Positions 37,485 through 57,194 of a stretch of DNA of 64,000 bases are shown here, piece after piece (position 1 is the first letter of the stretch; each line of letters starts with the position of its first letter). This stretch comes from Nitrosopumilus sp. (lineage in GTDB: Archaea; Thermoproteota; Nitrososphaeria; Nitrososphaerales; Nitrosopumilaceae): NCBI GenBank assembly GCA_965206745.1, contig OZ242220.1, positions 480,001 through 544,000 on the forward strand, in the 5' to 3' direction. The notes below the pieces were generated by a model. That model was not told the DNA's origin, did not search any database, and saw nothing but the letters and a program-made list of their open reading frames with translations. Position numbers and translations under genes: made by a program.

Positions 37485-37489
37485 TTAGA

Positions 37490-38431
37490 TCACTTTTGCT
37501 TTTTACTCTGATATATTTTTTCAATCAAAGGAATTGCTTTTGCAATGTCGTCAAAATTTTTTATTGAAGAGCGAAAATTTCCTATTCCATGATGCCCAAT
37601 GTTTGAAACATCTTTTACAAACTTGGAAGTTTCAAGTAGAGTCATGTCACTTGTGGAATAATTGAGAGTAATTTTGGTTTTCAGTGCTTCTAGTGTACAT
37701 ATTGAAGAACCACCATCTCGTAGATAGTAACCACCATAAATTTTCCTTTGTTTAAACTCTACATCTTCAAATATTTTTTCAATTGTTTTCTTTAACTCAC
37801 CCCACAATTTTTTTATCTCGTCAGTAGGATGCTGATTATGATATTTTCCTGTAAGGTATTCCTCCTCAGTGTATTCTGATAGTCTAATTCTTACTTTAGT
37901 TGATTTTGGAGAATTTGGACTTTGAATTTGAGAATCTCCCATTCGGTTTAGAGTAATTATGTTGTCTTGATATTTTTTTATCTCATAGAGCTCAATAGGC
38001 AGTCCTTGAAAACCACTTGCTCTTTTTTGATATTTTGTGTATTCTTGTGAAATGAAAATTACACGTGTTTCATCCCAGTTGATATCCTTCACATCTGATG
38101 TTTTGTTCATTTTCTTGTTATAGAGCAGAACAAGGTTTTCTTTTCTCTCATGTAGTAATTGATAGTAACTTACCCCTTGATCAATTAGAGAGTAATTTTT
38201 AATTTTTTTGTATTCTATTATGACAAATGATTTTTTTTCAGAATCAAATGCTATAGTGTCAGGTCTTAGATCCTTTATCTGAAATTCAGTCTCAATAAAC
38301 TCTAATTCTGGAAATATTGAATCTAGGTTTTTTTCAACCATGTTCTGAATTATTTCTTCCAAATCAAATGCCTCTTGATGACTTTCTACTAGATTGTTCT
38401 TTTTTGATTGAAAAATTCTCATCAGAATCAA
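37490..38431 (-). CDS. NucS/DUF91-like PD-(D/E)XK nuclease with C-terminal DUF5655-like domain
   Basis: E..IQ..LEFIETEF..RPDTIA..VIIEYK..IDQGVSYY. The C-terminal DVSNIGHHGIG motif resembles DUF5655. Confidence 0.7.
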   Translation of the reverse strand: MILMRIFQSKKNNLVESHQEAFDLEEIIQNMVEKNLDSIFPELEFIETEFQIKDLRPDTIAFDSEKKSFVIIEYKKIKNYSLIDQGVSYYQLLHERKENLVLLYNKKMNKTSDVKDINWDETRVIFISQEYTKYQKRASGFQGLPIELYEIKKYQDNIITLNRMGDSQIQSPNSPKSTKVRIRLSEYTEEEYLTGKYHNQHPTDEIKKLWGELKKTIEKIFEDVEFKQRKIYGGYYLRDGGSSICTLEALKTKITLNYSTSDMTLLETSKFVKDVSNIGHHGIGNFRSSIKNFDDIAKAIPLIEKIYQSKKQK

Positions 38432-39069
38432 AAAAGATATCTATTGTCTCTTAGATAAAGGATCTTATGAAAATCACAATTGCCAGAAAAATTAATCTCA
38501 GTTTTGATGTTAAATAGTCTAAATATTTCGTATGAGATCGTTACTTAAAAAACTAGACATAAATATTTTCAACAATATTGATTCATCTTAACTAAAAGGG
38601 ATAGGTAACCTCATACAATATTTTGATGGAGAAAAATAATCGTATGCTAAGCAAGTAAGAAAAAGAATATCTCCAGTGTAATCTTGTTCATCAAAAAACT
38701 ATGAACATAAATTTATTTTATCAAAAAGAAGATAAAAACACAAGTAAACTAGATTGACGTCGACGATCTCTGATGAATATCTGACATCTTTCTTTATTAT
38801 ATCTGGATTACATGTGGCTGTAATCATCACAATCATGTGAGGGATACATTGCATACGAGACCCAGAGGTTTCTAGTGATCTCCACATGTATGGCATTTGG
38901 GCTGCAGGAATCATAATAATAGTAGTTGCAGGTTGTCAGATACTTTGTTTTTAGTTTTCTGGGATTAGTGTTAGACACAAATTACCATTAATACAAAACT
39001 TGTCTGTTATTGAAATCTGTAATTTTACAACCAAATCCAGCAATGTTTTTCATGAATGTGAAAAATCAA

Positions 39070-39141
39070 AGGTACCCGAGGGAGTCGAACCCCCTTGTAT
39101 AAGCTTTGCAGGCTCACGCATAACCGTTCTGCCAGAGTACC
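39070..39141 (-). tRNA. tRNA-Cys(GCA)
   Basis: Reverse complement GGTACTC..TGAGC-CTGCAAA-GCTTA..GGGGG-TTCGACT-CCCTC GGGTACC T folds as a cloverleaf. Confidence 0.92.
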
Positions 39142-39498: not shown

Positions 39499-40248
39499 AT
39501 GACCTGGTATTTTGATTCCCACATCCATCTCTCTGATTCCCAGTATGCCTCTGATATGGAGTTTCTCTTGATGCAGATGAAATGTTTAAAGATCAAGGCC
39601 TGCTGCGTATCAATGGACTATGAGAACTCGCTGCAGACCCTGGAGCTTGCCAAAAAAAGTGATCTGATCCTGCCCTTTATCGGAATCCATCCAGAGTGCT
39701 CCGGTGACGGACTGGAGGATGTCTCAAGGCTGATTGAGGAGAACCATGGTATCATATCTGGAATAGGCGAGATTGGACTGGATCCTACCTATGTGGATAC
39801 GGATCACACAAGGCAGAGTAAAGTGTTTGAGACTATGCTGATGCTGGCTGAAAAGTTTGACAAGCCGGTATCCATCCATTCCAGAAAGAGCCTTGATGAT
39901 GTCTTTGAAACCATGACCTCATATGATACCAAGCACGCGTTGTTACACTGGTTTGATGGAAGCAAAAAGCAGCTGCGAAAAGCAATGGATATGGGATTTT
40001 TTGTATCCTATGGTCCCGTGATGGTCTATGCCAATGACAAGCAGACCCTGCTCTCAAAGACTGACGAGTCTAGGATTCTTGTAGAGACTGATGGGCCTGT
40101 GAGGTTTTCTAGATGCTTTGAGATGAAGTCTGCACAGGTCAGCTTTATTCCAAGTGTGATATTTTGTGCATCAAAGATACTTGGCAAACCATTTGATGAG
40201 ATGGCATCCCTGCTGGAGTCAAATACAAACTCGTTTCTAGGGGTATAG
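39499..40248 (+). CDS. tatD: TatD family hydrolase
   Basis: DSHIH, GIHP, IGEIGLD, SIHSR, LVETDGP. Confidence 0.93.
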   Translation: MTWYFDSHIHLSDSQYASDMEFLLMQMKCLKIKACCVSMDYENSLQTLELAKKSDLILPFIGIHPECSGDGLEDVSRLIEENHGIISGIGEIGLDPTYVDTDHTRQSKVFETMLMLAEKFDKPVSIHSRKSLDDVFETMTSYDTKHALLHWFDGSKKQLRKAMDMGFFVSYGPVMVYANDKQTLLSKTDESRILVETDGPVRFSRCFEMKSAQVSFIPSVIFCASKILGKPFDEMASLLESNTNSFLGV

Positions 40249-40255
40249 GTTGGAT

Positions 40256-40468
40256 TCATCTGCTATTTTGGATGATCAGCATGTTAAAGTCATGCATGTT
40301 GTCCTGTATTGATAACTCTACTGCCTCTTTCATATTCTCCATGATTTCCCCGTATGTTTGACCCTGTGAGAAAGCATGCAACTCATCGCAACTGCCTATA
40401 AAACCGCCGTCAATCTTATCGGGAGTTATGAGTATGGTGTATGTCTTTTTTTGTACTATTGAATCCAT
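40256..40468 (-). CDS. HicB-family antitoxin-like protein (orphan)
   Basis: YTILITPD..GGFIGSCDELHAFSQGQT..E..ENMKEAVEL. No adjacent hicA seen. Confidence 0.75.
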   Translation of the reverse strand: MDSIVQKKTYTILITPDKIDGGFIGSCDELHAFSQGQTYGEIMENMKEAVELSIQDNMHDFNMLIIQNSR

Positions 40469-40571
40469 GATGTACCGTTTAATCACAAGGTGACAAAATA
40501 AAGTTTTATGATATATTTGGAGACCAATACGATAAAATATTCGAGGAACTGCATCAGATATTGATTAATTC

Positions 40572-41195
40572 ATGACTGAGTTTGATATTGATACAACTTT
40601 ACAGTCTCTATCCCAAATTCGCCCAATTTTTCACAATGAAGCAGATTTCCAATTTGCATTTGCATGGGAAATTCAAAAGCAATATTCAGATTACAACATT
40701 AGGTTAGAATACAAAGTCCCTACATTTGGTAATCGCTATACGGACATATGGATAAACGGCAAAAATCCTATTGCAATTGAATTAAAATACAAGCCAGTTT
40801 CAATGAATCTGCAGCATAATAAAGAGACATTTGAATTGAAAAATCAGGGTGCGGAAGATCTTGGCAGATACGATTTTCTAAAGGATGTTCAAAGGTTGGA
40901 AGAAATTATTATGAAATATCCTGAAACTAGCGCATATGCCATCATGATAACAAATGATAGTCTGTATTGGAGAAATCCGTCAAAACTCGATTCTATTGAT
41001 AAAGACTTTAAGATACATCAAGGTCGAAACATTCATGGCACCTTATCGTGGTCACCAAAGGTAGGAAAGGGCACTACAGAGAACAAGGATCCAATACAAA
41101 TTCATGGCAAATACTGCATGAATTGGCAAAGCTATTCTGACATTGATCAAGAATATGAAAAATTCAGAATGTTATGCTTGCAAATTAATTCATAA
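40572..41195 (+). CDS. putative PD-(D/E)XK nuclease
   Basis: FHNEADFQ..RLEY..TDIWI..IAIELKYK pattern. Confidence 0.6.
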   Translation: MTEFDIDTTLQSLSQIRPIFHNEADFQFAFAWEIQKQYSDYNIRLEYKVPTFGNRYTDIWINGKNPIAIELKYKPVSMNLQHNKETFELKNQGAEDLGRYDFLKDVQRLEEIIMKYPETSAYAIMITNDSLYWRNPSKLDSIDKDFKIHQGRNIHGTLSWSPKVGKGTTENKDPIQIHGKYCMNWQSYSDIDQEYEKFRMLCLQINS

Positions 41196-41251
41196 TTTGA
41201 TACGCCAGTAAAAGCATAATAAAAAACACATATGTAAAAATCAAAAATTAC

Positions 41252-41281
41252 TTGCGTCAATCCTGCAAAAATTTGATTCAA
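41252..41281 (+). repeat. degenerate copy of the hsdS dyad recombination site
   Basis: TTGCGTCAA-TCCTGCAAAAAT-TTGATTCAA. The first 14 bp match the hsdS-A distal site read on the minus strand, and the spacer is again 12 bp. Confidence 0.45.
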
Positions 41282-41334
41282 TCTTGGCTATGATCCTTTT
41301 GGAAGATTCACTTTCTCAGACTCTAAATTATACA

Positions 41335-42255
41335 TTATGATTTTTCGTCTCTGTTGGACATTGCCACATTAAACTGCTTGAATGTATCTTCTGCCATGTC
41401 TCTGATCTTGTCCTGTAATAGCACGTCTCCGTCTAGAAACTCACTGGGATTCACTTTGATTGATATGACAGGATATTTCACACATCTGTCTCTCCCTGGT
41501 TCTAAAGAGACGTTGCCATGTTGATCTAAAACTACGTAACGCGGGTCACGCCGAGTAGGCATTTTTACTGCATCTTCAAACGCATTTTCTAGTTTTATAA
41601 CCAAGTTGCAATCTTGTTTAAAATAACGGTCATACCGTTTATTTCCATATCCTAAAGGTTCATACAAATTGACTGCAGCTACTCTGATACAATGAATATC
41701 CGAAATACTCCATATTCCATGTTTGGTTACAATATATGAGAGAGGATCAATAAATTGAGATTTTTCAGACATTGGAGCTATGCCTATTCCCTTTTTAGTA
41801 TAACCAAGAATGAATGGTTTGCTGTGTCTTGCTACTAATTGTTGTGTGGTAGAAAACGCATAGTCTAATTGCAATCTTCCTTCTGAGAGAAATCGTAAAG
41901 AACCAAATTCGATTATTCCGTTAACCATGCAATCATATATTCTTGGAACCATTTCATCAATGGTGTAATGTATGTATGCAACATTGTCCCAAAATTCTTT
42001 TTTTAACCTCGTTTCGATCTCTTGATCACTCATTGTGTCCTTCCAATTATCATAGATTTTTTGGGGACTCACCCCACATGCAAAGATATGGTGTGGTCTG
42101 TTTTTGGCCTGTTGTATTATGCAGATATTTCCATCTTCATCTTGGCCTATTTCCAATTTCTGATCCAATTCATTACACATCTTTGATGCATCTTCAAGCA
42201 ACAAACGAAATCTGGCATGATTCCATGATGAATCTATCTTGCCATATGATTTCAT
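41335..42255 (-). CDS. hypothetical protein
   Basis: 306-aa ORF divergent from TBP paralogue 1; no recognisable motif. Confidence 0.7.
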   Translation of the reverse strand: MKSYGKIDSSWNHARFRLLLEDASKMCNELDQKLEIGQDEDGNICIIQQAKNRPHHIFACGVSPQKIYDNWKDTMSDQEIETRLKKEFWDNVAYIHYTIDEMVPRIYDCMVNGIIEFGSLRFLSEGRLQLDYAFSTTQQLVARHSKPFILGYTKKGIGIAPMSEKSQFIDPLSYIVTKHGIWSISDIHCIRVAAVNLYEPLGYGNKRYDRYFKQDCNLVIKLENAFEDAVKMPTRRDPRYVVLDQHGNVSLEPGRDRCVKYPVISIKVNPSEFLDGDVLLQDKIRDMAEDTFKQFNVAMSNRDEKS

Positions 42256-42391
42256 ATGATGGTATTTTTTAATATCTTATTAAATTTTTAGTAGAAAAAA
42301 ATCACAATTGAAAAATATGATCAGATAAAGGATGATTCAAACAATGTTGCTTTTTTCAAAGTGTATTAAGGGTATAACATTCAATAAAAGA

Positions 42392-42931
42392 ATGTCACTT
42401 TCAAGTTCAAAACTTAGATCAGAGATAAAAATTCAAAACACTGTAACCACGGCAGATCTCAAGCAGGAGATAAATCTGACATCTTTTAACAAACACAAAC
42501 ATCTTAGCTCAAATCTAGAACTATACAGATGTGGCTATGTTAAAGATGACACCATGACAGGCAGAGTTACCGTCTTTAGAACCGGAAAACTCATCTCAGT
42601 TGGAACAAAAAGTCCAGGGCAGGCAAAAAAAGAGCTAGCCAAAGCATGTAAGATACTACAGAAATACAAGATTGCAAAACCTGTTAAAATTACTCCACAA
42701 ACAAGAAACATTGTATCAAGATTTGACATGAAGAAAAAATTACCAATAGAAAAACTTGCAAGAACACTGCCAAAATCCATGTATGAGCCAGAACAGTTTC
42801 CTGGACTGATTTATAGAATTCAGGGCAGCTGTGTTGCCCTGATATTTGCATCAGGAAAAGGAGTCATTGCAGGAGCAAAGTCAATAGAGGAAACAAATGC
42901 GGCATTCTTTGATGTAAAATCACGGCTCTAG
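42392..42931 (+). CDS. tbp: divergent TATA-box-binding protein paralogue 1
   Basis: Two TBP repeats: IQNTVTTADL..VTVFRTGKLISVGTKS and RNIVSRFD..YEPEQFPGLIYR..LIFASGKGVIAGAKS. Likely start ATG at 42392. Confidence 0.85.
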   Translation: MSLSSSKLRSEIKIQNTVTTADLKQEINLTSFNKHKHLSSNLELYRCGYVKDDTMTGRVTVFRTGKLISVGTKSPGQAKKELAKACKILQKYKIAKPVKITPQTRNIVSRFDMKKKLPIEKLARTLPKSMYEPEQFPGLIYRIQGSCVALIFASGKGVIAGAKSIEETNAAFFDVKSRL

Positions 42932-43011
42932 CATAAAATACAAAAATAAAACAACTAGAACCATATCCTAAAACTATGGCACAAAAATAGAAATTATGCA
43001 ACAAATATCCG

Positions 43012-43935
43012 TTGACTACCTATCCTACATCTAGAGCGACTATCTTGTTTGAGGAGTCAATAAAGTCAAAGTACACCAAAAAGAACTACACGTCACACCT
43101 TAACCAATTCCTGAGATTTGCAGATATGCATTCTGAGAACCAACTGCTGAAAATACCTCATATGGAACTGCAGTACAAGCTAGAAAATTACCTAATAGAG
43201 TTAAAACATACCACAAACCCCAATTCAATATCGTCAAGGTTTCAGGGGATAAAGCACTTTTGTATTATGAACGAGATCAACCTCAACTGGAATATCATAC
43301 ACAAGATGTTCCCGCAAAGACAGAAAACCCAGAGTCTGCGTTCGTACACTTGCAAGGAAATCAGAGAGTTGTTATCTTGTGCAAAAAGTCTGCGTGATAC
43401 AGCCTTGATTCATTTTTTGGCATCGACTGGTGCAAGAATAGGAGTGTTTGATAATGTACTGTCAATGAAACATCTCAGAAAAATATCACACGGTTGCAAT
43501 GCCGTCAAGGTCTATGCAGGACAAGTTGAGGAATATTGGGTTTTTCTTACACCTCAGGCCTCAAGGGCATTGAATGTTTATCACAAATATCGTAAGCAGC
43601 ATGGTGAGATGTTTTGTGAAGACACTCCAATCTTTGCTATAATGAGTGCATCCCATGGACAGCTGGGATGGAGTGGTGCAAGATCTGCAGTATACAGAAC
43701 AGTCTCAAGAAGCAACATAAGACAAGATAAACAAGATAGTAGATATGATGTGCAGGTGGACCACGGATTCAGAAAGAGATTCAACACTATTCTAAAACTG
43801 GATAATTCTGTAAACTATAACATTGCCGAAAAGCTAATGGGACACAAGAATGGACTTGATGGTGTATATCTGACTCCTACTCTAGATGAACTCTTTGTGG
43901 AATTTAGAAAAGTGATGCATAAAATTGAGGTTTAA
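43012..43935 (+). CDS. tyrosine recombinase/integrase
   Basis: Catalytic residues present: STGARIG (R), HGFR (HxxR), LMGH (H), DGVY (Y). Confidence 0.92.
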   Translation: MTTYPTSRATILFEESIKSKYTKKNYTSHLNQFLRFADMHSENQLLKIPHMELQYKLENYLIELKHTTNPNSISSRFQGIKHFCIMNEINLNWNIIHKMFPQRQKTQSLRSYTCKEIRELLSCAKSLRDTALIHFLASTGARIGVFDNVLSMKHLRKISHGCNAVKVYAGQVEEYWVFLTPQASRALNVYHKYRKQHGEMFCEDTPIFAIMSASHGQLGWSGARSAVYRTVSRSNIRQDKQDSRYDVQVDHGFRKRFNTILKLDNSVNYNIAEKLMGHKNGLDGVYLTPTLDELFVEFRKVMHKIEV

Positions 43936-44044
43936 TCTTTTTTCTTTTAATTCAACCATTTATTGATATGGGACTATTTGAATCAAAAGTCCAAATATTC
44001 TTTCTCAAGAAAAGATATAATTTACAGATGAAATTATCTACAAA

Positions 44045-44878
44045 ATGGCAAAACTTATTTGTACTCTAAAAGAATTTACATATTTTATCGATCCAAGAGT
44101 AAGGAATAATGTTGCCACCATGACAAAACGATCAAAAAATCTCCTAGATTACAAATGTCAAAAATGCAATGAAAAAAAAGAATTAGATGCAGCCCATAAA
44201 CATGGGAGCAGCAGACCTGAGATTATTCGTAATGTTTTAAATAATTACAAAACAAATGATGATGAATATGAAATTGATGATTTGCAGAAAATAATCGATG
44301 AAATCAATGTAGCTCACACTCCCATTGAAGATCACTTTATATTTTTATGCAAAACATGTCACCGAGAATACGATTCATGGACACGGAATCTCGTCAACAC
44401 ACAACTTGAAGATGGCAATAGTAAAAAATCCTACAACATACAACCAAATAAATCACAAGAATCAAAGATACTCACAAATCTAGGTGATAATAACAATCCT
44501 GCTGAAATTTTATTCAAGGATGAGACCCGGAGTTGGAAATACAAGCTTGGTTGGACATCAATCCAAAATAGAAAAAATATCGAAGAACTAATTTCTAAAA
44601 TAGAAGCAAATTTTGATTGCTATCCGATTGCCCGCAATTCATGGTATTATTATAAACGAAATGACAACGACAAACAATTCTCAGCAATAAAAACCAACAT
44701 AAATGATTCAGAGATATGTTTTAGAATAGAACCTCTCTCTTTTGACATTAAGGATCCAAGAATAATTCATGGTAAGAGGTGGTTTTTTCCAGAAGGCAAA
44801 GAAAGAAAAATCAAGATCATCCCAGAAAACTATGAATTAATTTTGAAATGTTTGGATTATTCATACAAAATATCTTGA
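44045..44878 (+). CDS. putative HNH-type endonuclease with additional C-terminal domain
   Basis: CQKC..LDAAH....LCKTCH zinc/HNH-like pattern in the N-terminal half. Confidence 0.55.
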   Translation: MAKLICTLKEFTYFIDPRVRNNVATMTKRSKNLLDYKCQKCNEKKELDAAHKHGSSRPEIIRNVLNNYKTNDDEYEIDDLQKIIDEINVAHTPIEDHFIFLCKTCHREYDSWTRNLVNTQLEDGNSKKSYNIQPNKSQESKILTNLGDNNNPAEILFKDETRSWKYKLGWTSIQNRKNIEELISKIEANFDCYPIARNSWYYYKRNDNDKQFSAIKTNINDSEICFRIEPLSFDIKDPRIIHGKRWFFPEGKERKIKIIPENYELILKCLDYSYKIS

Positions 44879-45041
44879 TGTATTATTTCAGATAGAATTA
44901 CCCAATTATCAATTTGAATAGAAGATGAGGTATCTAGTGGATAAATTCAGATTTGTAAAAAATCCTCTAAAAACGAAAATATTGATTAATATTTCCATGT
45001 TGTAGTTGGTTTTTGATCCTAATAGAGAATTATGCTTGTAT

Positions 45042-46340
45042 CTATGTCTCTATAACTTGACCGAACTGTAACTTTATAGTTACAGTTAATCTCATGCATA
45101 AAATTATGATGATTATGAATTGTATACAATTTATTGCGTCAACTCCTGACAGGATTGACGCAATTTTTTGTTGTTCTGGTAGATATTTTGGAACGAGTAT
45201 TAACATTTTTTTAATTTCAGTCTTACTAATTTCTAGAAAAGTTGTTCCATATGATAATCGGATTAGGGTATTTTTATTGTTACATAATAAATAAAAAATG
45301 AATAAATTATCAAATTTATTATTACAAATTATATTTTGAAAACCTTGATTGGTAGATATTGGGTTGGCAGTTATTGCACATTCTCCAATAGTTGCTCTAG
45401 AAGTGAGTAAAATTGTACCTTTTGGTAATAATTTAGCTGAACTATCTTTTAATCCTTTTTCTGTAATCTTTCTTTCAGTATTATTAATGTAAGTTGTTTG
45501 TAACTTTGTAATATCTGTTGGAACCGCCCACAATATATTCCCATTCCAGTATTCTTTATTTTTAGAATTTGGTGTGCCACCACTGACTATTTCTCCTATA
45601 TTATCAAGCTTTGTTATTTTCCATTCTTCTGGAATTTCAATCTCTTTTCTAAATAATCCTTTAACTTTCTTAAACTTTGTATGTCTAATTCCTCTAGCCA
45701 ATAATTCTTGCATCAATCCTTTCTTTAATCGTCCAGCTTTATCCACAACTTGTTGTGTATTTTGTATCAATGCGTCAACATTAGAAAGAATTGATGCAAT
45801 TTTTTGTTGTTCGTTGATAAGAGGTAATAAAATTGGCATAATGGAATATTGTTTTGCATTAACATTGGGTTGAACTCCCCATGTTTGTATCGATAATAAC
45901 CATGCCCAATAAAATTTTGAATGTGTTAAATAAAAAAGAAATTTAGAATCAAGATTTTTATTGTCAGGTTTAAAACGAATTAGATATCCTGCAAATGCAC
46001 ATGTTTCATTACTTTCTTGATGAAGATATGTTTTGCCAACTGTTGCGCCAGTTCTTGCAAATAGAATATCTCCTTCATATAAAATATAATCTTGAGCATC
46101 TTCTTCGGATATTGATTTCCATTCTGAATATCTTAATGTTCCATTATCATTTAGATCTGTGATACGTATGTATCGAGGTAATTTTAGATTTTTTTCTATT
46201 GCTGACACAGATACACCATATTCAGCTTTACCAATACAATTTTCAGATAATGTTGTTTTCTTCCATTCTTCTGGAATCTCCATCACTTTTCCAAAAATCC
46301 ATTTTAGTAACTTGTAACCTTGTCTTGGTTTTCTAGCCAT
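45042..46340 (-). CDS. hsdS: hsdS-A: type I S subunit with two TRDs but no C-terminal conserved helix (probable silent cassette)
   Basis: MARKPRQGYK..IPEEW TRD1, central EQQKIASILSNVDA..KKGLMQELL, then TRD2. After EQQKIASILSGVDA the frame runs into unrelated sequence (INCIQFIIIIIL..). Confidence 0.88.
   Translation of the reverse strand: MARKPRQGYKLLKWIFGKVMEIPEEWKKTTLSENCIGKAEYGVSVSAIEKNLKLPRYIRITDLNDNGTLRYSEWKSISEEDAQDYILYEGDILFARTGATVGKTYLHQESNETCAFAGYLIRFKPDNKNLDSKFLFYLTHSKFYWAWLLSIQTWGVQPNVNAKQYSIMPILLPLINEQQKIASILSNVDALIQNTQQVVDKAGRLKKGLMQELLARGIRHTKFKKVKGLFRKEIEIPEEWKITKLDNIGEIVSGGTPNSKNKEYWNGNILWAVPTDITKLQTTYINNTERKITEKGLKDSSAKLLPKGTILLTSRATIGECAITANPISTNQGFQNIICNNKFDNLFIFYLLCNNKNTLIRLSYGTTFLEISKTEIKKMLILVPKYLPEQQKIASILSGVDAINCIQFIIIIILCMRLTVTIKLQFGQVIET
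45135..45167 (-). repeat. IR2-left: distal inverted repeat, pairs with 56921..56953
   Basis: Reverse complement AAAATTGCGTCAATCCTGTCAGGAGTTGACGCA is 32/33 identical to 56921..56953. The site is itself a near-perfect palindrome (45133..45164). Confidence 0.9.
45699..45812 (-). repeat. IR1-left: central inverted repeat, pairs with 56288..56401
   Basis: 114 bp; its reverse complement is identical to 56288..56401 on base-by-base comparison. Confidence 0.95.
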
Positions 46341-46347
46341 AATTGAT

Positions 46348-46890
46348 TTATTTAAGCAACCCATTTAATCTTTGAATTATCTCAAAAGAGGCAGTGTTTA
46401 ACTCATTTGCAGATTTTGCACCTATGATTACAATTTTTCCTGATGCAAAAACAAGACAGCTACAACTATCCAATCCTTTTACTATCATACCTGGAAATGT
46501 TTCAGGATCATACACTACACCATCCATCTTTGTTGATATGATGTCAATCGGTATTGCTTTACCTGTTGTAACTGTAGCTACAATATTTCTAATCTTTGTT
46601 GATAATGTTACATTTTTTATCATGTTGTGTTCTAACAGATGGAATTTAGATTGGTTTAACTGCTCTTTTGCCCTTTTAATTGACTTTGCGCCAACTGATA
46701 TCATCTTACCACTTAGAAAAATAGTAACACGACCATCCATTTCAGGTATTTTGACATATCCGCATCTACCACCATATATTGCCTCATCATAAATACAACA
46801 AGGGATTTTTACAAATTTTAATATGTCTACTTTTTGCTTTAAATCTGCAGTACATACAACATTGTGAATTTTGGGTTTTAGATTCAACAA
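46348..46890 (-). CDS. tbp: divergent TATA-box-binding protein paralogue 2
   Basis: IHNVVCTADL..VTIFLSGKMISVGAKS and IRNIVATV..YDPETFPGMIVK..LVFASGKIVIIGAKS. Likely TTG start at 46890 or 46887. Ends 7 bp before the hsdS-A start. Confidence 0.85.
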   Translation of the reverse strand: MLNLKPKIHNVVCTADLKQKVDILKFVKIPCCIYDEAIYGGRCGYVKIPEMDGRVTIFLSGKMISVGAKSIKRAKEQLNQSKFHLLEHNMIKNVTLSTKIRNIVATVTTGKAIPIDIISTKMDGVVYDPETFPGMIVKGLDSCSCLVFASGKIVIIGAKSANELNTASFEIIQRLNGLLK

Positions 46891-46954
46891 AACAGAACAC
46901 TTTGCGGCTCTTAAATATCCCTCATTTTTGATAAAATATTTAGATGATGTAAAT
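46891..46954. promoter_or_regulatory. putative compact divergent promoter region between tbp2/hsdS-A and hsdR
   Basis: 64-bp AT-rich gap between head-to-head starts, with TATA-like CTTAAATA and TTGATAAAATATTTA. Inferred from position only. Confidence 0.4.
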
Positions 46955-49900
46955 ATGTCAAAACTATTGGATTTTAATGTAGGTACAGGTGATGAGGCAG
47001 AACAATCAGAGATCCCAGCACTAGAACAGCTAGTCAAAATGGGATATCAATATATTTCAAAAAATGACCTAAAAAGAGAACGAAGAAAAACAACCGAAGT
47101 CTTATTGTATGACAGATTAAATAATGCAATTAAAAGAATCAATCCTCAACTAGATTCAGATGGAATCGATGATGCAGTAAATCAGATCAAAGAAGATACA
47201 TTTCCATTTACATATGATACAATGAATACTAATGAAAAGATTCGAGCTAAATTAATTGGATTGTCTCAAACAGGAGGACTGGAACCAATAACAGTTGATC
47301 AACATGATAAAAACAGGACCATAAAAAAGACTGTAAAACTTTTTGATTTTGATGATATAGATAACAATGATTTTATTGTTACAAATCAATTTGAATTGCA
47401 GGGACTCAAAAATCTAATATATCCCGACATTGTTTTATTTGTAAATGGCATTCCATTAGTTATCATAGAATGCAAATCACCATTTAGAAGAAATTGGTTA
47501 GTTGATGCAGTAGAAAAAGAAAATTTCAATAAATATCGTTCTAGAGGAGCAGGTTATGAAAAACTAATGTTCTACAATCACATTCTAGTTGCAACTTGTG
47601 GCACACAAGCAAGACATGGAACAATATCGTCAGATTTAAATCATTTTCAAAATAGCAGATGGTCAAGCGCATATCCATTAACTGAAAAAGAGATTGAAGA
47701 AAAATTTGGAAAAAACAGAGAACAAGAGATTTTAATTGCAGGAATGCTTGACAAATCCCATCTTTTGGATTTACTAAAAAATTATGTACTTTATCAAACA
47801 GTTAACAACAAGCGAATCAAAATTATTGCAAAACATCAACAATATAGAGCAGTCAGAAAATGTGTTGAAAAAATTAAAACTGCAAACACCAGACAAGGAG
47901 GAATTATCTGGCACACTCAGGGTTCAGGAAAATCCTTTACAATGCTGTGGGTTGCAAGGCAGGCAATAGAATATGATAATTTGCCTCTAGTCATAGTCAC
48001 AGACAGGCGTCAATTAGATAAACAAATCCACACTACTTTTACACAAGTTGGATTCCCAAATCCAATAAAGGCATACAAATCAGCACAACTTGCAGATTTT
48101 ATAAAATCACCAAAGGGTAAAACCATGATGACTACAATTCAAAAATTTGAGGAAATTAGTGAATCTACAGATGAGAAAATTATCGTTCTAGTGGATGAGG
48201 CACATCGGTCACAGTTTGGAATCGATGCAGGTGCAATGGATAAAGCAATTCCAAATGGGATTTACTTTGGGTTTTCTGGAACTCCAATTGATAACAAAGA
48301 TAAATCCGTATATCGAGTATTTGGTGATCTAATAGACAAATATGGATTTGAAGAATCAAAAGCAGATGGTGCTACCATCCCGATAAGATATGTTGGACGA
48401 TTGCCAAATCTCTTTGTCGAAGATGATGAATCTATCGATATCTTATTTGATAGAATTATTGGTTCTGAACCAAACATGACGCCAGAACTAAAAGAACAGC
48501 TAAAAAAAGAATATGTGAATAAAGATAAAATTATACAAGCTCCTCAAAGGATTAAAAAAATTGCATTGGATATTGTAGAGCATTACACTAATAACATTCA
48601 AGATAATGGCTACAAGGCAATGATTGTGGCATCATCACAAGAATCTGCAGTACTATACAAAGAAGAATTAGATCGCCTCAATGCTCCGCCATCAAAAATC
48701 ATCATGGATCAAAGGATTGGCAAGACAGGAAAAGATGGAACAAGTTGGGATGTCCATTATCTAACCGATTCTCAAAAAAGACAAATAGAAGATTCTTTCA
48801 AAAATCCAGATAATGAGATTAAAATTTTGATAGTTGTTGATATGTTGCTAGTTGGATTTGATGCACCGATAGTCAAAGTGATGTATCTTGATAAATCCCT
48901 CAAAGAGCATGCACTACTTCAGGCAATTGCACGTGTAAACAGGTCATATGATGAATGGAAAGAAGAGGGATTGATTGTAGATTATTATGGCATAACTAAG
49001 AATATTCAAAAAGCATTAGAAACTTTTGATCCAAAAGATATCAAAGGAGCTTGGGAATCTGATGACTCGCAACTAGATATACTAAAAATATATCATACAC
49101 AAACAATGAATTATCTCAAAGGATTAGATAAAAACAAACCGGAACAAATCATAGAAGCATTTGAATCCATTGATAAAAGAGAGGCATTTGAGGATTATTT
49201 TAAAAAATTTTCCAAAGTTCTAAATTCACAATTATATAAAACGGAATCATCTCAATACATTTCTGATTTTAAGGAATTGAGTAAGATCAGAGCATTGTTG
49301 AGAAACTGGTATGAGAATCCAAAAAATTCTACTCGAAAATATGCTGTGATGATTCAGAAATTAATTGATGATGCAATAGGAGCAACTGGTGTTTCTGAAC
49401 TTGTAAAACCAATGGAAATAACATATGATAATTTCTTAGCATATGTCTTAAAATTTAAATCTTCAAGAGCTAGAACTGCACTTATTAAAAATAAAGCAGA
49501 GCAAGTGATTATGGAAAATTACTCCCATAATCCAGTATATTATGAAAAATTGCGGGAATTACTTAAACGATTAATCTCAGAAGAAAAACAAAGAAGAGAA
49601 GAGAATGCGGAGTATGTTGATTCAACCATGGAGGAAAAATTCAAGGAAATTTATAATAAAGCATTAGATATAGAAAAAGAAAGAAAAAATCTTGGGTTTG
49701 ATAGAGACATAGAATTTTCAATATATGGATTAATTAAAGAATATAAAAAAGATAAGAATAAATCAATTGAAATTACAAAGAGATTATCTGAAAAAATATT
49801 ACCTGAGACAGAAATTATTGAATGGCATCATAAATTAAGCATCAAACGAAAGATTGAAAAAATCACATATGATATTCTAGATTCATTTGGTATTGTGGAT

Positions 49901-49960
49901 GAAGATATATCAAAATTATCGGAAAAGATTTTAACATTGCTCAATTGTGATAACTTGTGA
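46955..49960 (+). CDS. hsdR: type I restriction enzyme R subunit (locus 2)
   Basis: YPDIVLFVNGIPLVIIECK, HTQGSGKS, DEAHRSQ, GFSGTP, VGFDAP, QAIARVNR. Likely start ATG at 46955 (MSKLLDF). Confidence 0.95.
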   Translation: MSKLLDFNVGTGDEAEQSEIPALEQLVKMGYQYISKNDLKRERRKTTEVLLYDRLNNAIKRINPQLDSDGIDDAVNQIKEDTFPFTYDTMNTNEKIRAKLIGLSQTGGLEPITVDQHDKNRTIKKTVKLFDFDDIDNNDFIVTNQFELQGLKNLIYPDIVLFVNGIPLVIIECKSPFRRNWLVDAVEKENFNKYRSRGAGYEKLMFYNHILVATCGTQARHGTISSDLNHFQNSRWSSAYPLTEKEIEEKFGKNREQEILIAGMLDKSHLLDLLKNYVLYQTVNNKRIKIIAKHQQYRAVRKCVEKIKTANTRQGGIIWHTQGSGKSFTMLWVARQAIEYDNLPLVIVTDRRQLDKQIHTTFTQVGFPNPIKAYKSAQLADFIKSPKGKTMMTTIQKFEEISESTDEKIIVLVDEAHRSQFGIDAGAMDKAIPNGIYFGFSGTPIDNKDKSVYRVFGDLIDKYGFEESKADGATIPIRYVGRLPNLFVEDDESIDILFDRIIGSEPNMTPELKEQLKKEYVNKDKIIQAPQRIKKIALDIVEHYTNNIQDNGYKAMIVASSQESAVLYKEELDRLNAPPSKIIMDQRIGKTGKDGTSWDVHYLTDSQKRQIEDSFKNPDNEIKILIVVDMLLVGFDAPIVKVMYLDKSLKEHALLQAIARVNRSYDEWKEEGLIVDYYGITKNIQKALETFDPKDIKGAWESDDSQLDILKIYHTQTMNYLKGLDKNKPEQIIEAFESIDKREAFEDYFKKFSKVLNSQLYKTESSQYISDFKELSKIRALLRNWYENPKNSTRKYAVMIQKLIDDAIGATGVSELVKPMEITYDNFLAYVLKFKSSRARTALIKNKAEQVIMENYSHNPVYYEKLRELLKRLISEEKQRREENAEYVDSTMEEKFKEIYNKALDIEKERKNLGFDRDIEFSIYGLIKEYKKDKNKSIEITKRLSEKILPETEIIEWHHKLSIKRKIEKITYDILDSFGIVDEDISKLSEKILTLLNCDNL

Positions 49961-50652
49961 TTAAAAAAATAAAATATCTTGATTCTGTGATAGAATATGA
50001 CTTAATCAAAAGTAAACGTAGAAAGACATCACAAATCACAATTACACCTGATAAAATAACGATAAGAACACCAGATACGAAATCTTCAGCAGATGTAGAA
50101 AAAATTGTACAAAAAAAGGCACAATGGATATTTAAAAAACAATTACATTTTATTGGACAAAAAAAACCAGTTTTTTCATTAAAATCGCTTTTACTAATTT
50201 ACGGCAAAAATTACAAAATCAAGATTATTCCCAACAATACGGAAAAAACATGTCTGAATGGAGATGTTATAGAATTTCACATATCACAAAAGAAATACAA
50301 TACAAAGCAGATCAAAGCACAGTATGATGCATATTTGAGGAAAAAAGCGTACGTATTGTTTCCAAAATGGACCAAAGTATTAGCAGAAAAAATTGATGTG
50401 CATCCAACCAAAATCAACATCAAAGAGCTCCGAGGTAGATGGGGAAGTGCTACTGCTACAGGTGCGATCAATCTTAATTCCAATCTGATAAAGGCTCCAA
50501 AAAAGATCATCAGATATGTTATTTTTCATGAATTATGTCATTTTAAAATCAAAGAACATTCACATCATTTTTGGAATCTAATGGGACAACATATGCCTGA
50601 ATATAAGGAATCAATAAAATGGTTAGAAGCAAATGGAATCAAAATCAGTTAA
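49957..50652 (+). CDS. M48/YgjP (DUF45) family metallopeptidase-like protein
   Basis: RGRWGSA, YVIFHELCH..HSHHFW. Overlaps the hsdR stop. Confidence 0.88.
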   Translation: MIKKIKYLDSVIEYDLIKSKRRKTSQITITPDKITIRTPDTKSSADVEKIVQKKAQWIFKKQLHFIGQKKPVFSLKSLLLIYGKNYKIKIIPNNTEKTCLNGDVIEFHISQKKYNTKQIKAQYDAYLRKKAYVLFPKWTKVLAEKIDVHPTKINIKELRGRWGSATATGAINLNSNLIKAPKKIIRYVIFHELCHFKIKEHSHHFWNLMGQHMPEYKESIKWLEANGIKIS

Positions 50653-50689
50653 GATGTATTTTTGATGCTAAAATAGTATGATATCGTCT

Positions 50690-50810
50690 ATTCAAAAACC
50701 AAATACAAAAATGTATTCCACAAAGAAAAAGATAACAAGGTTGTTCAGAAAATGCTTACAATGTACATGGTATTGAAAGAAAAAAATGACATATGAAAAG
50801 ACAGATCATA
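50690..50810 (+). mobile_element. IS630-like N-terminal fragment
   Basis: KEKDNKVVQKMLTMYMVLKEK, similar to the fragments at about 24.3 and 54.5 kb. Limits approximate. Confidence 0.4.
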
Positions 50811-50939
50811 TACTTATGCATTCTTCTGATGGAGTATCCATATGGGTACAAAGAGGATCGTCTTTATGCCTTCGTAGAGGAGAGATCTTCCATGAATTAA
50901 TAGGTCTCCATAGATATCATATACAAAACTTAACAAGAT

Positions 50940-51830
50940 AATGCACCCTAACGAATTTTTGTTCATCAGTTTATCACACATCAAATCTTGACGGAAATAA
51001 ATATGCGTGATTATTTTTACCAGTAATCCAAACACATGTTTTTTAATCATCAGTTAATCATATTGTTAGTTATTGATAATATGAGTTAAAAAAATTACAG
51101 TTCTTTTATTCAATGGCTTCAAGCTACCTGTCAGATTACAAACGATCTTGACCTGCAAATCATATCTCATCACACCACACTACAAAAGACAGCGGCAAGA
51201 ATAAATGAAAAGATACTATACATGGTAATAAAACGATTCATCAATCATGTATATGCAAGAGAAATATTTGGAATTGATATATTTGGAATTGAGACAGGCC
51301 GTGCAATAAAACATTATTCATGGAGGGTTCAAAATCAGATATATATTTATCAAGGCATATCTCTATGTTCTGACATATCAACCCAGATTGTCTGCACTAC
51401 AATTGTAGATAATCACCAGTATCTCATGACGTCAAACATGTTTCTTCATCGCTATCAAAAATACATCCTCACAAATTAGTAAAGCCAATGATACCTGACA
51501 AGGGAATAGGATTCAGAATTAATCCACAAATTGATACTCAGTAACAGCATACATTCTGTAATTCCTGTAAGAAGCAGGACAAACAGGGTCAGCAAGGTAA
51601 AAAAGACATGCAGAAAAGAGATGTATCGAAAATTTGAAAAAGAGACATATTTTCAGAGAAATTAAAAAGAGTTGTCTTTTCGGTAATAAAGAGAATGTTT
51701 GATCAAAGATTCTTTCATGTAATGAATCTTAGATAGTAAAAGAAACACCACATAAAATATTGGTCTATAACTGTCACAGAATATACCTGATCGTAAATTT
51801 AGAGATGATTTCTATATTGTCGATCTAACT
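50940..51830 (+). mobile_element. heavily degraded IS5-family (DDE_Tnp_1-like) transposase
   Basis: Frameshifted fragments in the expected order: DKG.DSELIH, VIPVR, KFEKETYFQRN, VFSVIKRMF, LVYNCHR. Confidence 0.65.
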
Positions 51831-51866
51831 AAATCTATATTACTTGAAGACTATCATAGTTATTAG

Positions 51867-53375
51867 TTGTCAGATAAAATTACCCTTGAAGAATTAAAAT
51901 CTTATCTTTGGAAAGCCACTGATATTTTACGGGGATCTCTTGATCCTCAAGAATATAGACAACCGGTAATGACTGTTCTATTTCTAAAGAGATTAAATGA
52001 TACTTTTGAAGAAAATGTTGAAAAATTAATCAAAGAGGGAAATACACAAAAAAAAGCAGAACAAAAATTTCGACACAAGTTCTATGTTCCAGAATCTGCA
52101 CGATGGCATGTACTATCTGATGCATCATCGAATCTGGGTGAAATAATTGATAATGTCTGTAGAGATATTGAAAACAACGTTTCACAACTAGAAGGAGTTC
52201 TCACCAATACTACATACAATGATAAAAAAAAATATCCTGATGATAAATTACGAAAATTAATTGCACATTTTAATGAACTTACACTAAAGAACCAAAATCT
52301 AGAGAAAGAAGACATCTTTGGAGATGCATACGAGTATTTATTGGAGACATTTGCAGATGAAACAAAAAAGAAAGGTGGTGAATTTTTTACTCCAAGGGAA
52401 ATTGTTCAACTTTTAGTAAACATTACAAAGCCACAGGAAAAAATGAAAATCTCAGATCCGACATGTGGTTCTGGTGGTATGTTGGTTGTGTCTAGAAAAT
52501 ATGTCAAAGATCACAGAGGAAATATCGAAAACATTGTACTTGATGGTCAAGAATCTAATTATGGAAATTTAGGAATGTGTAAGATGAATCTAATGTTGCA
52601 TGGTGTGGAGAATTTTAGAATAGAATATGGTGATACCTTGTCTGATCCTAAACTTATTGACTGTGGAAAATTGAAACAATATGATAGAGTATTGGCAAAT
52701 TTTCCATTTTCCATGGATTGGGATAACTCTACTGCATCAAAAGATCCATACAATAGATTTGGATACGGTATTGCACCAGCCAAAGATAAGGCAGACTATG
52801 CATTTATCTTGCACATACTATCATCTCTAAACGAAAAAGGACAAGCAGCCATTGTCTGTTCACAAGGTGTTTTGTTCAGAGGAGGTGAGGAAGGGAAGAT
52901 TAGAAAGAATATGATAATGGGTAATGGATCAAATAATCTTGCAAATGATGTAATTGAGGCAATAATTGCATTGCCTCAAAAGATGTTCTGGGGAACAAGT
53001 ATTCCTGCTTGTGTAATGATACTAAACAAGAATAAGCCTACAAAAAGAAGAAGAAAAATAATATTCATTTACGGCGCAAAGGATTTTGAGGAGGGAAAGA
53101 ATAGAAACAAACTACGCGATGTAGATATGAAAAAAATTATCTCAGCGTTTGAGAAATTTGAAGATATTGACAAATATTGTCATGTTGCAAATATTGAAGA
53201 GTTGGAGGAAAATGAATTTAATCTCAACGTTCCAAGATATGTTGATATTTCAGAGCCTGAAGAAGATATTGATATTCAGAATGCATGGGATGAACTCATA
53301 GAGATCAACACAGTACAAGAAAAACTGAAAAAACAAGTAAAAACAGATCTCAAGGAATTAGGAATAAAGATCTGA
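51867..53375 (+). CDS. hsdM: type I restriction enzyme M subunit (locus 2)
   Basis: LWKATDILRG, GEFFTP, DPTCGSGGML, ANFPFS (variant motif IV), GVLFRG, NLNVPRYV. Confidence 0.94.
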   Translation: MSDKITLEELKSYLWKATDILRGSLDPQEYRQPVMTVLFLKRLNDTFEENVEKLIKEGNTQKKAEQKFRHKFYVPESARWHVLSDASSNLGEIIDNVCRDIENNVSQLEGVLTNTTYNDKKKYPDDKLRKLIAHFNELTLKNQNLEKEDIFGDAYEYLLETFADETKKKGGEFFTPREIVQLLVNITKPQEKMKISDPTCGSGGMLVVSRKYVKDHRGNIENIVLDGQESNYGNLGMCKMNLMLHGVENFRIEYGDTLSDPKLIDCGKLKQYDRVLANFPFSMDWDNSTASKDPYNRFGYGIAPAKDKADYAFILHILSSLNEKGQAAIVCSQGVLFRGGEEGKIRKNMIMGNGSNNLANDVIEAIIALPQKMFWGTSIPACVMILNKNKPTKRRRKIIFIYGAKDFEEGKNRNKLRDVDMKKIISAFEKFEDIDKYCHVANIEELEENEFNLNVPRYVDISEPEEDIDIQNAWDELIEINTVQEKLKKQVKTDLKELGIKI

Positions 53376-55178: not shown

Positions 55179-55742
55179 ATGCAAATTTTTATATCTCATG
55201 CCAAAGAAGATAATCCCATAGTCTACCAAATATTGAAAATGCTAGACGATAATCAAATTCGTCATTGGCAGGATCTAACTCGAATAGATGTAAGTAGTTC
55301 TATTAACAAAGAGATAAACGATGCAATTAGTTCTTCTAGTCATTTTTTATTAATATGGTCAAAAAATGCAAATAAATCAACGTTTGTTCAAAAAGAATAT
55401 AATTCAGCTATTACTCCAGATTATGATTATAAATTAAAGAAAATAATTATAAGATTAGATGATACTCGTCTACCTGCATTATTGGCTGATTTACGATATT
55501 ATAGAATTAGTTCTGATGAATTAGAAAAAACTATGCATGAGATAATTTTTGACATTAAGAAACTAGATAATGAAGATGAAAGACAAAAGAAATTTGATGA
55601 TTATCTAGATGAAAAATTTGACAATATTTTTATTGCAGATCACGAATACAGCACATCATATGCATTAAAAAATATAGATAACAAAACATATCATGAAAAC
55701 ATGCTAAGTTGGGAAGATGTTTTAAATGAGGAAGGAAATTGA
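55179..55742 (+). CDS. TIR-domain protein (TIR_2-like) with short C-terminal extension
   Basis: IFISHAKED, EINDAISSS..FLLIWS.NA.KS.FVQKEY with the putative catalytic Glu. The stop overlaps the hsdS-B start. Confidence 0.85.
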   Translation: MQIFISHAKEDNPIVYQILKMLDDNQIRHWQDLTRIDVSSSINKEINDAISSSSHFLLIWSKNANKSTFVQKEYNSAITPDYDYKLKKIIIRLDDTRLPALLADLRYYRISSDELEKTMHEIIFDIKKLDNEDERQKKFDDYLDEKFDNIFIADHEYSTSYALKNIDNKTYHENMLSWEDVLNEEGN

Positions 55743-57052
55743 AAAAAAGAAATAGATACAAGAGAGTAAAAGGATTGTTTGGTGAATATGAAGAAATTCC
55801 AGAAGAATGGGGCTTTTCAATTTTAAATAAACTAACTTTACATAATGATCAGAGTTCCATCCGAATGGGTCCATTTGGAAGTAGTCTAAAAAAACATGAA
55901 TTATTAGATGAAGGAAAAATTAAAACAATCTGGATTGAAAATATTGTAAATAATGAATTTTCATGGGAATATCAGAAATATATCTCTGAAGAAAAATATA
56001 AACAACTTGGAAATTTCACAGTAAAACCAAATGATCTTCTTATTACAATGATGGGAACTTTGGGAAGAGTAGCTATAGTTCCAAAAGACATCGATATTGC
56101 CATAATCTCGTCACATCTTCTAAAAATTACATTAGATAATGACAAAATGATTTCAGAATATTTGTATTATTTCTTAAAATCAAATTTTGCATTTCGACAG
56201 ATTACAAAAGAATCTAGAGGGATGGTAATGGGAGGTTTGAATACAAAAATTATTAAAAATCTATGGATAATTATTCCAACAATTCTAGAACAACAAAAAA
56301 TTGCATCAATTCTTTCTAATGTTGACGCATTGATACAAAATACACAACAAGTTGTGGATAAAGCTGGACGATTAAAGAAAGGATTGATGCAAGAATTATT
56401 GATAAAAGGAATAAAACATGACCAATTTAAGAAAATAAAAGGATTATTTGGTAAAGAGATAGAGATTCCTGAAGATTGGGAGATCAAGAAAATTAATGAA
56501 ATAGGAGAGATAATAACTGGTAATACTCCATCAACAGATAACCAAGAATATTATGGTAATGAATATTTGTGGGTTAGCCCATCAGATATAAATCAACAAA
56601 AATTTATTGATAATACTAATTCAAAATTATCCCGTAAAGGATTCGAAGTTTGTAGAAGTATACCTAAATATGCGGTTTTAATTGTTTGTATTGGTTCGAC
56701 TATAGGAAAAATTGTAATAGCATCCAAACAAATGTCAACTAACCAACAAATTAATTCAATAATTTGTAAGCAATTTGATCCAGAATTTGTGTATTATCAA
56801 ATACTAAAAAATAATAAATTAATCAAAAACATATCTAATCAAGCTGCAGTTCCAATTTTAAACAAAACAGATTTTGGCATAATTAAAATCATTATACCCA
56901 CTAATTATGAAGAACAAACCAAAATTGCATCAATCCTGTCAGGAGTTGACGCATACATTCAAAAAAATCAAGAATACAAGAAACATCTGGAACTTCTAAA
57001 GAAAGGATTAATGCAAAAATTACTAACTGGTAAAATACGTGTAAAAGTATGA
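55739..57052 (+). CDS. hsdS: hsdS-B: full-length type I S subunit (probable expressed allele)
   Basis: IPEEW TRD1, central conserved helix, IPEDW TRD2, and complete tail YIQKNQEYKKHLELLKKGLMQKLLTGKIRVKV. Confidence 0.94.
   Translation: MKKRNRYKRVKGLFGEYEEIPEEWGFSILNKLTLHNDQSSIRMGPFGSSLKKHELLDEGKIKTIWIENIVNNEFSWEYQKYISEEKYKQLGNFTVKPNDLLITMMGTLGRVAIVPKDIDIAIISSHLLKITLDNDKMISEYLYYFLKSNFAFRQITKESRGMVMGGLNTKIIKNLWIIIPTILEQQKIASILSNVDALIQNTQQVVDKAGRLKKGLMQELLIKGIKHDQFKKIKGLFGKEIEIPEDWEIKKINEIGEIITGNTPSTDNQEYYGNEYLWVSPSDINQQKFIDNTNSKLSRKGFEVCRSIPKYAVLIVCIGSTIGKIVIASKQMSTNQQINSIICKQFDPEFVYYQILKNNKLIKNISNQAAVPILNKTDFGIIKIIIPTNYEEQTKIASILSGVDAYIQKNQEYKKHLELLKKGLMQKLLTGKIRVKV
56288..56401 (+). repeat. 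IR1-right (114 bp)
   Basis: Identical inverted copy of 45699..45812. Contains TTGCATCAA-TTCTTTCTAATG-TTGACGCA (56301..56329). Confidence 0.95.
56921..56953 (+). repeat. IR2-right (33 bp)
   Basis: Contains TTGCATCAA-TCCTGTCAGGAG-TTGACGCA (56925..56953). Inverted copy of 45135..45167. Confidence 0.9.
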
Positions 57053-57194
57053 CTTTGGGAATGTGCCTAGAATGGAAAGATCATCAAAATTCAGAACAAG
57101 ACTGATTCCTATGCCTAGAATGCCAGTTGTATCCTTGGGGGAGCCACAAAACGGGTATTAGGTATAAAATACCCCTTTCCTCACTTGACGATTA

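Follow-up and report, generated by a model that had tools for sequence, protein, structure and literature searches.

A tyrosine recombinase beside inverted hsdS genes in a Nitrosopumilaceae chromosome, a candidate invertase of a restriction specificity shufflon

What is the task of a lone tyrosine recombinase that is encoded next to a restriction-modification system of type I with two specificity genes (hsdS) in opposite orientation? The question arises in a 64,000-nucleotide stretch (the window), which comprises positions 480001-544000 of a 1.86-Mb Nitrosopumilaceae chromosome (label G000:C1), and concerns a single-copy gene that we call INT (43012..43935, plus strand; 307 amino acids). A preliminary description of this DNA had proposed that INT is retained as an inversion enzyme rather than only as the integrase of the island in which it lies. 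In our analysis it is moderately probable that INT serves as the site-specific invertase of a shufflon for type I restriction-modification specificity; this reading is supported at the level of the INT family, and it is likely for the copy in the window. Linkage across the family and a breakpoint that is fixed in 15 of 15 loci speak for the preference expressed earlier, an att-like repeat around the island speaks against it, and inversion stays the more likely function of the two.

INT is a real and intact tyrosine recombinase. Its open reading frame (ORF) begins with TTG and is free of internal stops, and the catalytic motifs, which the preliminary description had read correctly, follow in the order R142, H251-x-x-R254, H278 and the nucleophile Y286. 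In a family alignment of 24 sequences R142, R254, H278 and Y286 are invariant and H251 is nearly so. The AlphaFold2 model (pLDDT 87.9) displays the two-domain fold, with a core-binding and a catalytic domain, and Foldseek relates this model to XerA (E 1e-9) and to Cre (TM 0.66). The single sequence gave no match in the PDB at E 0.01; a family profile was needed, and it reached the XerA structures 5HXY (E 1.3e-7) and 4A8E (E 1e-5). Pfam Phage_integrase (PF00589) matches INT weakly (E 1e-5; 25.9 bits, under the cut-off of 27.1), and the NCBIfam XerA model gives 57.8 bits where the curated equivalog cut-off is 220.

Could INT then be a housekeeping recombinase of the Xer type, with the resolution of chromosome dimers as its task? 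XerA is indeed its best-scoring curated family and provides the nearest solved structures; INT shares the two-domain architecture of archaeal XerA, and its candidate site (see below) has a dif-like dyad layout. Moreover, INT is the sole tyrosine recombinase found in the genome: a search of all of G000 with the INT protein returned one match, INT itself, PF00589 returned none at E 0.01 in a search so insensitive that it missed INT, and no XerA-type gene was seen with these two queries, the latter being the insensitive one. Against this stand a score far under the XerA cut-off, the lack of a conserved hairpin lysine, the position of the gene in an island that is absent from 8 of 10 relatives, and its patchy occurrence in the genus: among 61 genomes of the genus, each at least 90% complete and the window's own included, 27 have no INT match at E 1e-20 and others have several copies. 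Dimer resolution is accordingly very improbable as the function of INT, which is distinct from XerA.

The DNA on which INT would act lies in the two specificity genes: hsdS_B1 (45042..46364, minus strand), which encodes two target-recognition domains and whose C-terminal helix is replaced, and hsdS_B2 (55739..57052, plus strand), a complete specificity gene with the sole full C-terminal helix. Both hsdS bodies are open reading frames. The two proteins are 39% identical overall and share 38 identical central residues, and their alignment stops exactly at ..SGVDA; HsdS_B2 continues from there into the usual last helix (..SGVDAYIQKN...LLTGKIRVKV) and HsdS_B1 into 30 unrelated residues. The 114-bp inverted repeat noted earlier is real and perfect, its left arm (45699..45812) being in the central conserved region of hsdS_B1 and its right arm (56288..56401, or 56401-56288 in matching direction) in that of hsdS_B2. 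A second pair of motifs, distal to the first, shares a perfect 24-bp core, and the 114-bp and 24-bp repeats occupy the same codon register of conserved HsdS motifs.

Common to these repeats is a 30-bp dyad-symmetric site with the pattern ATTGMRTCAAY-N10-RTTGAYGCA, which is encoded within the codons of two conserved HsdS helices (..KIASILSxVDA..), the near-palindrome itself encoding ..KIASILSGVDA... The central site of hsdS_B1 (C1; 45769..45800, minus strand) lies inside the perfect 114-bp repeat, and that of hsdS_B2 (C2; 56300..56331, plus strand) has an identical spacer. The distal site of hsdS_B1 (D1; 45133..45164, minus strand; core copy at 45135-45158) is at the end of the hsdS_B1 frame, and homology to hsdS_B2 ceases at its outer edge; the distal site of hsdS_B2 (D2; 56924..56955, plus strand) has the spacer of D1, unlike that of C1 and C2. 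A lone fifth site (41253..41282, minus strand; one mismatch) is situated in an intergenic gap, has a spacer unlike the other four, and is probably the relic of a lost hsdS. Five sites were thus observed in the window where 0.04 were expected by chance, and with at most one mismatch allowed these five in the island are the sole matches in the 1.86-Mb genome. With its end at 43935 and the first position of the nearest hsdS site at 45133, the recombinase gene lies outside the invertible segment by about 1.2 kb, as had been described.

From this arrangement a mode of working can be proposed. INT would act on the dyad sites of the inverted pairs C1/C2 and D1/D2, and only C-with-C and D-with-D exchange is expected, because the spacers are identical within pairs and different between pairs. 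An exchange of C with C would turn about 10.5 kb, including hsdR_B (46871..49960, plus strand) and hsdM_B (51867..53375, plus strand), both within the predicted invertible segment, and would swap the N-terminal recognition domains. An exchange of D with D (about 11.8 kb) would pick which hsdS body is joined to the sole complete C-terminal helix, the other body ending in junk. Together the C and D exchanges could yield four HsdS variants. We infer that INT binds the dyad sites, that this strain undergoes inversion, and that methylation specificity differs among the variants.

The strongest support comes from the company kept by the relatives of INT. At E 0.001 or better INT has 1255 relatives; identity to INT in the best 120 ranges over 58-100% (100% being the window protein), several of these 120 are encoded on contigs 1-2.8 Mb long, and the named relatives of the gene are Nitrosopumilaceae. 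We compared 36 related loci (L001-L036) by gene map, and a maximum-likelihood tree, from which seven loci with fragmentary INT were left out, placed 23 loci and the window (24 rows) in one clade with 100/99 support that includes all hsdS-linked members. In 15 of these 23 clade loci an hsdS lies within 3 kb, and 13 of the 15 have hsdS on both strands within 12 kb. The eight clade loci that lack hsdS within 3 kb include two on contigs of 3-4 kb, one whose contig ends 0.9 kb past INT with a site motif at that end, and L023, which has a type IIG layout. The INT clade accompanies two families of type I systems, between which HsdM identity is only about 25%, and the second HsdS family (..KIESIFDRIDA..) has the same two site arms.

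The same linkage appears in the 61 genomes, a sample that overlaps the 36 loci and hence is not an independent data set. It holds 99 Methylase_S matches and, at E 1e-20, 88 INT matches, whose identities are bimodal and split at 52%. Among the matches of at least 52% identity, i.e. the INT clade, 16 of 23 have an hsdS domain within 3 kb, as against none of the 65 below 52%, which are longer ORFs representing the usual integrases of the genus. Viewed from the hsdS side, INT is found within 5 kb at 10 of 14 loci with domains on both strands and at 5 of 29 one-strand loci. The Fisher values (1.7e-12 for the first comparison and 0.0014 for the second) overstate the case because related genomes are not independent. 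The phylogeny of homologues and the co-occurrence with paired hsdS genes, which the preliminary description had put forward as a check, hence came out in favour of its proposal; it had also named homologues that are unlinked to hsdS and act at tRNA att sites as evidence to the contrary, and what we found is hsdS linkage and no tRNA att duplication.

The sites are conserved along with the enzyme. In 12 of the 36 related loci one inverted pair is nested within the other, in the order C D..D C or else D C..C D; the central spacers are identical within all 12 nested pairs, and central and distal spacers always differ. Of 13 loci in which distal sites form pairs (these 12 and L010), eight have identical distal spacers and five have distal spacers that differ by one base. 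At 15 of 15 loci the two members of a distal pair match at 28-30 of 30 positions, and the next 30 nucleotides match at only 4-17 of 30 (mean 10.5). In the window and in 14 related loci the truncation of the second hsdS copy coincides exactly with the distal site's outer edge. Such a breakpoint, fixed at the edge of the dyad site in two gene families, fits site-specific exchange and is not predicted by general recombination. The central crossover may also proceed by RadA or another long-repeat route through the 114-bp repeat. Near-identical inverted repeats link the paired hsdS genes in many of the related loci, for instance L002 (860 nucleotides, 98.4%), L036 (750 nucleotides, 99.6%) and L013 (189 nucleotides, 99.5%), and between relatives hsdM, hsdR and the recognition domains are inverted relative to a collinear INT module. 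In the recurrent and commonest layout (L013, L016, L019, L020, L027) INT stands between the two hsdS genes, in the order truncated hsdS, hicB, hicA, INT, opposite-facing complete hsdS, hsdM, hsdR and YgjP; L024 has a transposase in place of hicBA, and the topology of L006 is that of the window.

A number of observations nevertheless weigh against an invertase, and several of them would suit an integrase. INT is the sole recombinase of an island (40251-57163) that is bounded by a direct repeat of 10/11 nucleotides, as an integrase would leave. The left copy (40241..40250) lies at the tatD stop codon and forms the left border; the right copy (57153..57163) forms the right border, and the sequence that follows tatD in relatives comes next. 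In 8 of 10 same-genus genomes tatD directly precedes the gene whose start in the window is 57195; in the window 16.9 kb lie between the two. The restriction system and INT came in as an inserted element, because the site is empty in these 8 genomes and the borders are direct repeats. The end of tatD is moreover a hot spot of insertion, with 8.9 kb in G017 and at least 20 kb of unrelated DNA in G014, and in L002, L003 and L005 INT is located at the edge of variable DNA beside the same conserved genes. In L001 INT is 1.5 kb from tatD, the end of which is broken by an IS4-like element and shows no att motif; this locus neither supports nor refutes targeting of tatD.

On these grounds INT might be merely the integrase of a 17-kb cryptic integrated element with the restriction system as cargo, any hsdS rearrangement passing through the 114-bp repeat by way of RadA. 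There is precedent for such elements: in the accessible part of their paper Krupovic et al. 2019 (PMC6563490) describe cryptic integrated elements of Thaumarchaeota that resemble the island in having an integrase-family gene, HsdM/S/R, an M48/YgjP-type peptidase and short direct repeats, and they treat the recombinase as the element's integrase; the accessible main text contains neither "inversion" nor "hsdS", nor "TATA". The archaeal recombinase review PMC8371274, as far as its text is accessible, cites elements of this kind for att sites down to 8 bp. Against an integrase alone, the usual longer integrases of the genus do not keep company with hsdS as the INT clade does; in the five loci of the commonest layout and in L024 INT is placed within the restriction locus, flanked by a pair of inverted hsdS genes, and not at an island edge; the border repeat bears no likeness to the 30-bp hsdS site; and the insertions at the tatD site of G017 and G014 contain no INT-clade gene. 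The distal sites, with only 24 identical bases, are short for general recombination, yet the truncated-copy design, which depends on these sites, is conserved in 15 loci. We consider it unlikely that INT is only an integrase.

A tRNA gene was considered as the target as well. The tRNA-Cys gene (39070-39141, minus strand) is 3.9 kb from INT, with conserved histone and tatD genes between them, so that the earlier statement that INT does not adjoin a tRNA is right in substance. The tRNA-Cys-histone-tatD block is kept in all 24 sampled genomes of the genus. No partial copy of the tRNA was found in the window (best match 16 nucleotides, E 0.38, blastn-short), and tRNA-Cys was rejected as the att site, there being no duplicated tRNA part and the border lying at the tatD stop.

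Other observations too count against the invertase, and some of them, namely the atypical layout, the broken INT copies, the hairpin lysine, the insertion-sequence remnant and the lack of joints in contigs, could mean that the family once inverted hsdS genes and that the module is frozen in this strain. The layout of the window is atypical when set beside the commonest one: INT is displaced to 1.2 kb from D1 with an unrelated ORF (44045-44878; no family match) between it and hsdS_B1, and hicA is missing. INT is absent from 4 of the 14 two-strand hsdS loci and is broken in L021, L025, L027 and L034; of the seven clade matches in the 61 genomes without a nearby hsdS, three are broken or partial, one is the type IIG locus L023, and three are intact and have no such neighbour. 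The beta2-beta3 hairpin of the INT model (163-179) has a turn, YAGQVEE, without lysine, and the hairpin lysine varies within the clade (K166 in the window; K, L, N or R in the column); some distant homologues have K or R close to the turn. The identity of the C-site spacers may just follow from the long identical repeat and is not independent evidence. An IS630-like decayed remnant (53647-54497, minus strand), which bears out the earlier remark on decayed transposases in the island, lies between hsdM_B and the TIR-domain gene that precedes hsdS_B2; it was found with queries drawn from four ORF clusters, three of transposases (IS630-, IS4- and IS66-like) and a fourth that is recombinase-like.

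Sequencing runs likewise gave no direct evidence of inversion. We examined four of the seven runs listed (X1, X2, X3 and X6), of which X1 and X2 contain the locus as Logan contigs only, and among the joints listed for these contigs none is an inversion at the C or D sites, which is weak evidence because such contigs drop rare variants. Contigs end at 45135 in X2 and at 45150-45179 in X1; these ends are unexplained by genome repeats and may stem from co-occurring strains, and depth differences in X2 point to mixed strains. The ends at the sites are unreadable as inversion because X1 and X2 contain related strains. Two further sources were discarded: the raw reads of X3 gave only unrelated matches of about 18 and 24 nucleotides, and the second contig of the assembly (C2, 2066 nucleotides), tried as an alternative arrangement, does not match the chromosome. 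A frozen module is quite unlikely all the same: the INT frame is intact and its four other catalytic positions are conserved, both hsdS bodies are open, and neither pair of sites shows the erosion that drift would have caused, the C pair being perfect across 114 bp and the D pair in its core and spacer.

If INT is an active invertase, the working principle would be that of the pneumococcal PsrA system and other bacterial invertons, with an archaeon as the new host. The locus shows three of the traits by which Huang et al. 2020 recognise invertons: two or more hsdS genes within a type I locus, here enclosing hsdR_B and hsdM_B; inverted hsdS repeats that keep the reading frame after exchange; and a co-localised invertase gene, in this case the candidate INT. 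A further trait is inversion within a clonal population, on which the contigs of X1 and X2 described above bear. [quoted passage not shown] There are also differences. The window is archaeal, and the kinship of INT to PsrA is at superfamily level, as judged by the curated best match to XerA and not by direct alignment; hsdR and hsdM are inside the predicted invertible segment; and the second hsdS is a full two-domain gene without its last helix, not a promoterless part-gene. Inversion by PsrA was shown by experiment; in the window it is predicted. The Bfa9343I inverton of Bacteroides fragilis resembles the window in having its invertase gene (bfiA) beside the invertible DNA; it differs in being bacterial, in having four hsdS genes (two of them single-domain) and in that its inversions were confirmed by polymerase chain reaction and sequencing. 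According to the accessible part of Huang et al. 2020 (PMC7672463), invertase genes occur both within and beside invertons.

Programmed inversions of restriction specificity are well studied in host-associated bacteria, where they act as epigenetic switches. In the hsd loci of Mycoplasma pulmonis two inverted hsdS genes flank the other hsd genes, and the recombinase HvsR is encoded outside; this layout resembles that of the window. Archaea have received little mention in this connection: Milman et al. 2023 place them explicitly outside their inversion survey, the main text of Atack et al. 2020 does not mention them, the accessible part of the archaeal recombinase review (PMC8371274) contains neither "invertase" nor "restriction", and an archaeal survey of restriction-modification systems contains neither "inver" nor "recombinase". 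In the main texts of the open-access literature we found no case of inverted hsdS genes in archaea, nor of hsdS with a recombinase in Thaumarchaeota, and broader searches listed no archaeal case either. Should our proposal hold, it would add archaea, in the form of abundant marine ammonia oxidisers, to the organisms with phase-variable defence and possibly with methylome switching; it would offer a defined 30-bp site and a small enzyme open to direct testing; and the "integrases of cryptic elements" of Thaumarchaeota would need reannotation.

A more far-reaching proposal can be made for the lineage, at somewhat less than even odds. Nitrosopumilaceae would possess a lineage-wide family of programmed shufflons for restriction specificity, the first described in archaea, run by their own lysine-less Xer-like clade on a 30-bp site within the codons of the HsdS coiled-coil helices. 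Their design would be a "tail swap", a competition between two full hsdS bodies for a single C-terminal helix; the invertible unit would often carry its recombinase and HicAB, the clade would also serve a type IIG enzyme, and TBP paralogues would perhaps provide the island with a transcription control of its own.

The type IIG case is L023 (6430-11738). In this locus an INT homologue (52% identical) has on one side an Eco57I/MmeI-like enzyme of type IIG (1157 amino acids) and on the other a spare C-terminal cassette of 269 amino acids in inverted orientation, and enzyme and cassette are linked by repeats of 115 nucleotides (95.7%) and 759 nucleotides (77%). L023 is likely a recognition-domain shufflon of another enzyme type. 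Two other loci deserve a remark. L017, a 3086-nucleotide contig labelled Hyphomicrobiaceae bacterium, contains a gene of the INT clade together with hsdS and a TBP gene; the contig is probably mis-binned, because it groups with Nitrosopumilaceae in the tree. L036 and L004, which have the same isolate label and different arrangements, were considered as two states of one locus and rejected as such: they are 92-95% identical and represent co-occurring strains.

The remaining genes of the island are as follows. At its left edge is a HicB-like antitoxin gene (40256..40486, minus strand), which is inverted relative to INT and lacks its hicA. A HicB-HicA pair is found directly upstream of INT in L002, L006, L013, L016, L019, L020, L025 and L027, and in the five of these with the commonest layout it is inside the smallest invertible unit; other loci have a second HicB/HicA type downstream, and the window keeps hicB alone. 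A TBP paralogue (42332..42931, plus strand) directly precedes INT, and a second one (46348..47037, minus strand) overlaps the start of hsdS_B1; TBP paralogues adjoin INT or hsdS in eight loci (L004, L010, L011, L012, L014, L017, L034, L036). Following hsdR_B is a YgjP-like metallopeptidase gene (49957..50652, plus strand), a usual companion of these type I systems. The TIR-domain gene (55179-55742, plus strand) and hsdS_B2 are probably co-transcribed, because the former overlaps the start of the latter by 4 nucleotides. No replication genes were seen among the INT neighbours scanned with Pfam, NCBIfam, PADLOC and PHROGs, some small ORFs of the island being unscanned, and to that extent the earlier statement stands.

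A rearrangement of another kind was met in the contigs. An opposite-strand joint connects position 40450/40458, at the start of hicB, to 44835 in a related organism (X6, depth 11.4), and the same joint recurs as a minority form (depth 2.1 of about 440) in X1, the window's own run. It shows that the INT-bearing 4.4-kb block is arranged differently among strains; an arm-like motif where hicB starts marks the left breakpoint.

Upstream of the tRNA-Cys gene, between it and a conserved gene, lies a second strain-specific island (29726-39069) that is missing in relatives. It contains hsdR, a single hsdS, an hsdM of 800 amino acids, a YgjP-like peptidase gene and the candidate defence gene PDC-S18, and has neither a recombinase nor a 30-bp dyad site. 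The tRNA-Cys region itself is present in extra copies in other genomes, 93-97% identical over 112-139 nucleotides in genomes that are otherwise about 75% identical: G007 (C1:1836796-1836913 and C1:1848238-1848355), G024 (C63), G001 (C82) and G022 (C40). The two copies in G007 are inverted and 11.4 kb apart, and G014 carries a 35-nucleotide duplicate of the 3' half of the tRNA (C1:1737750-1737784). These extra copies suggest mobile elements that target or carry tRNA-Cys.

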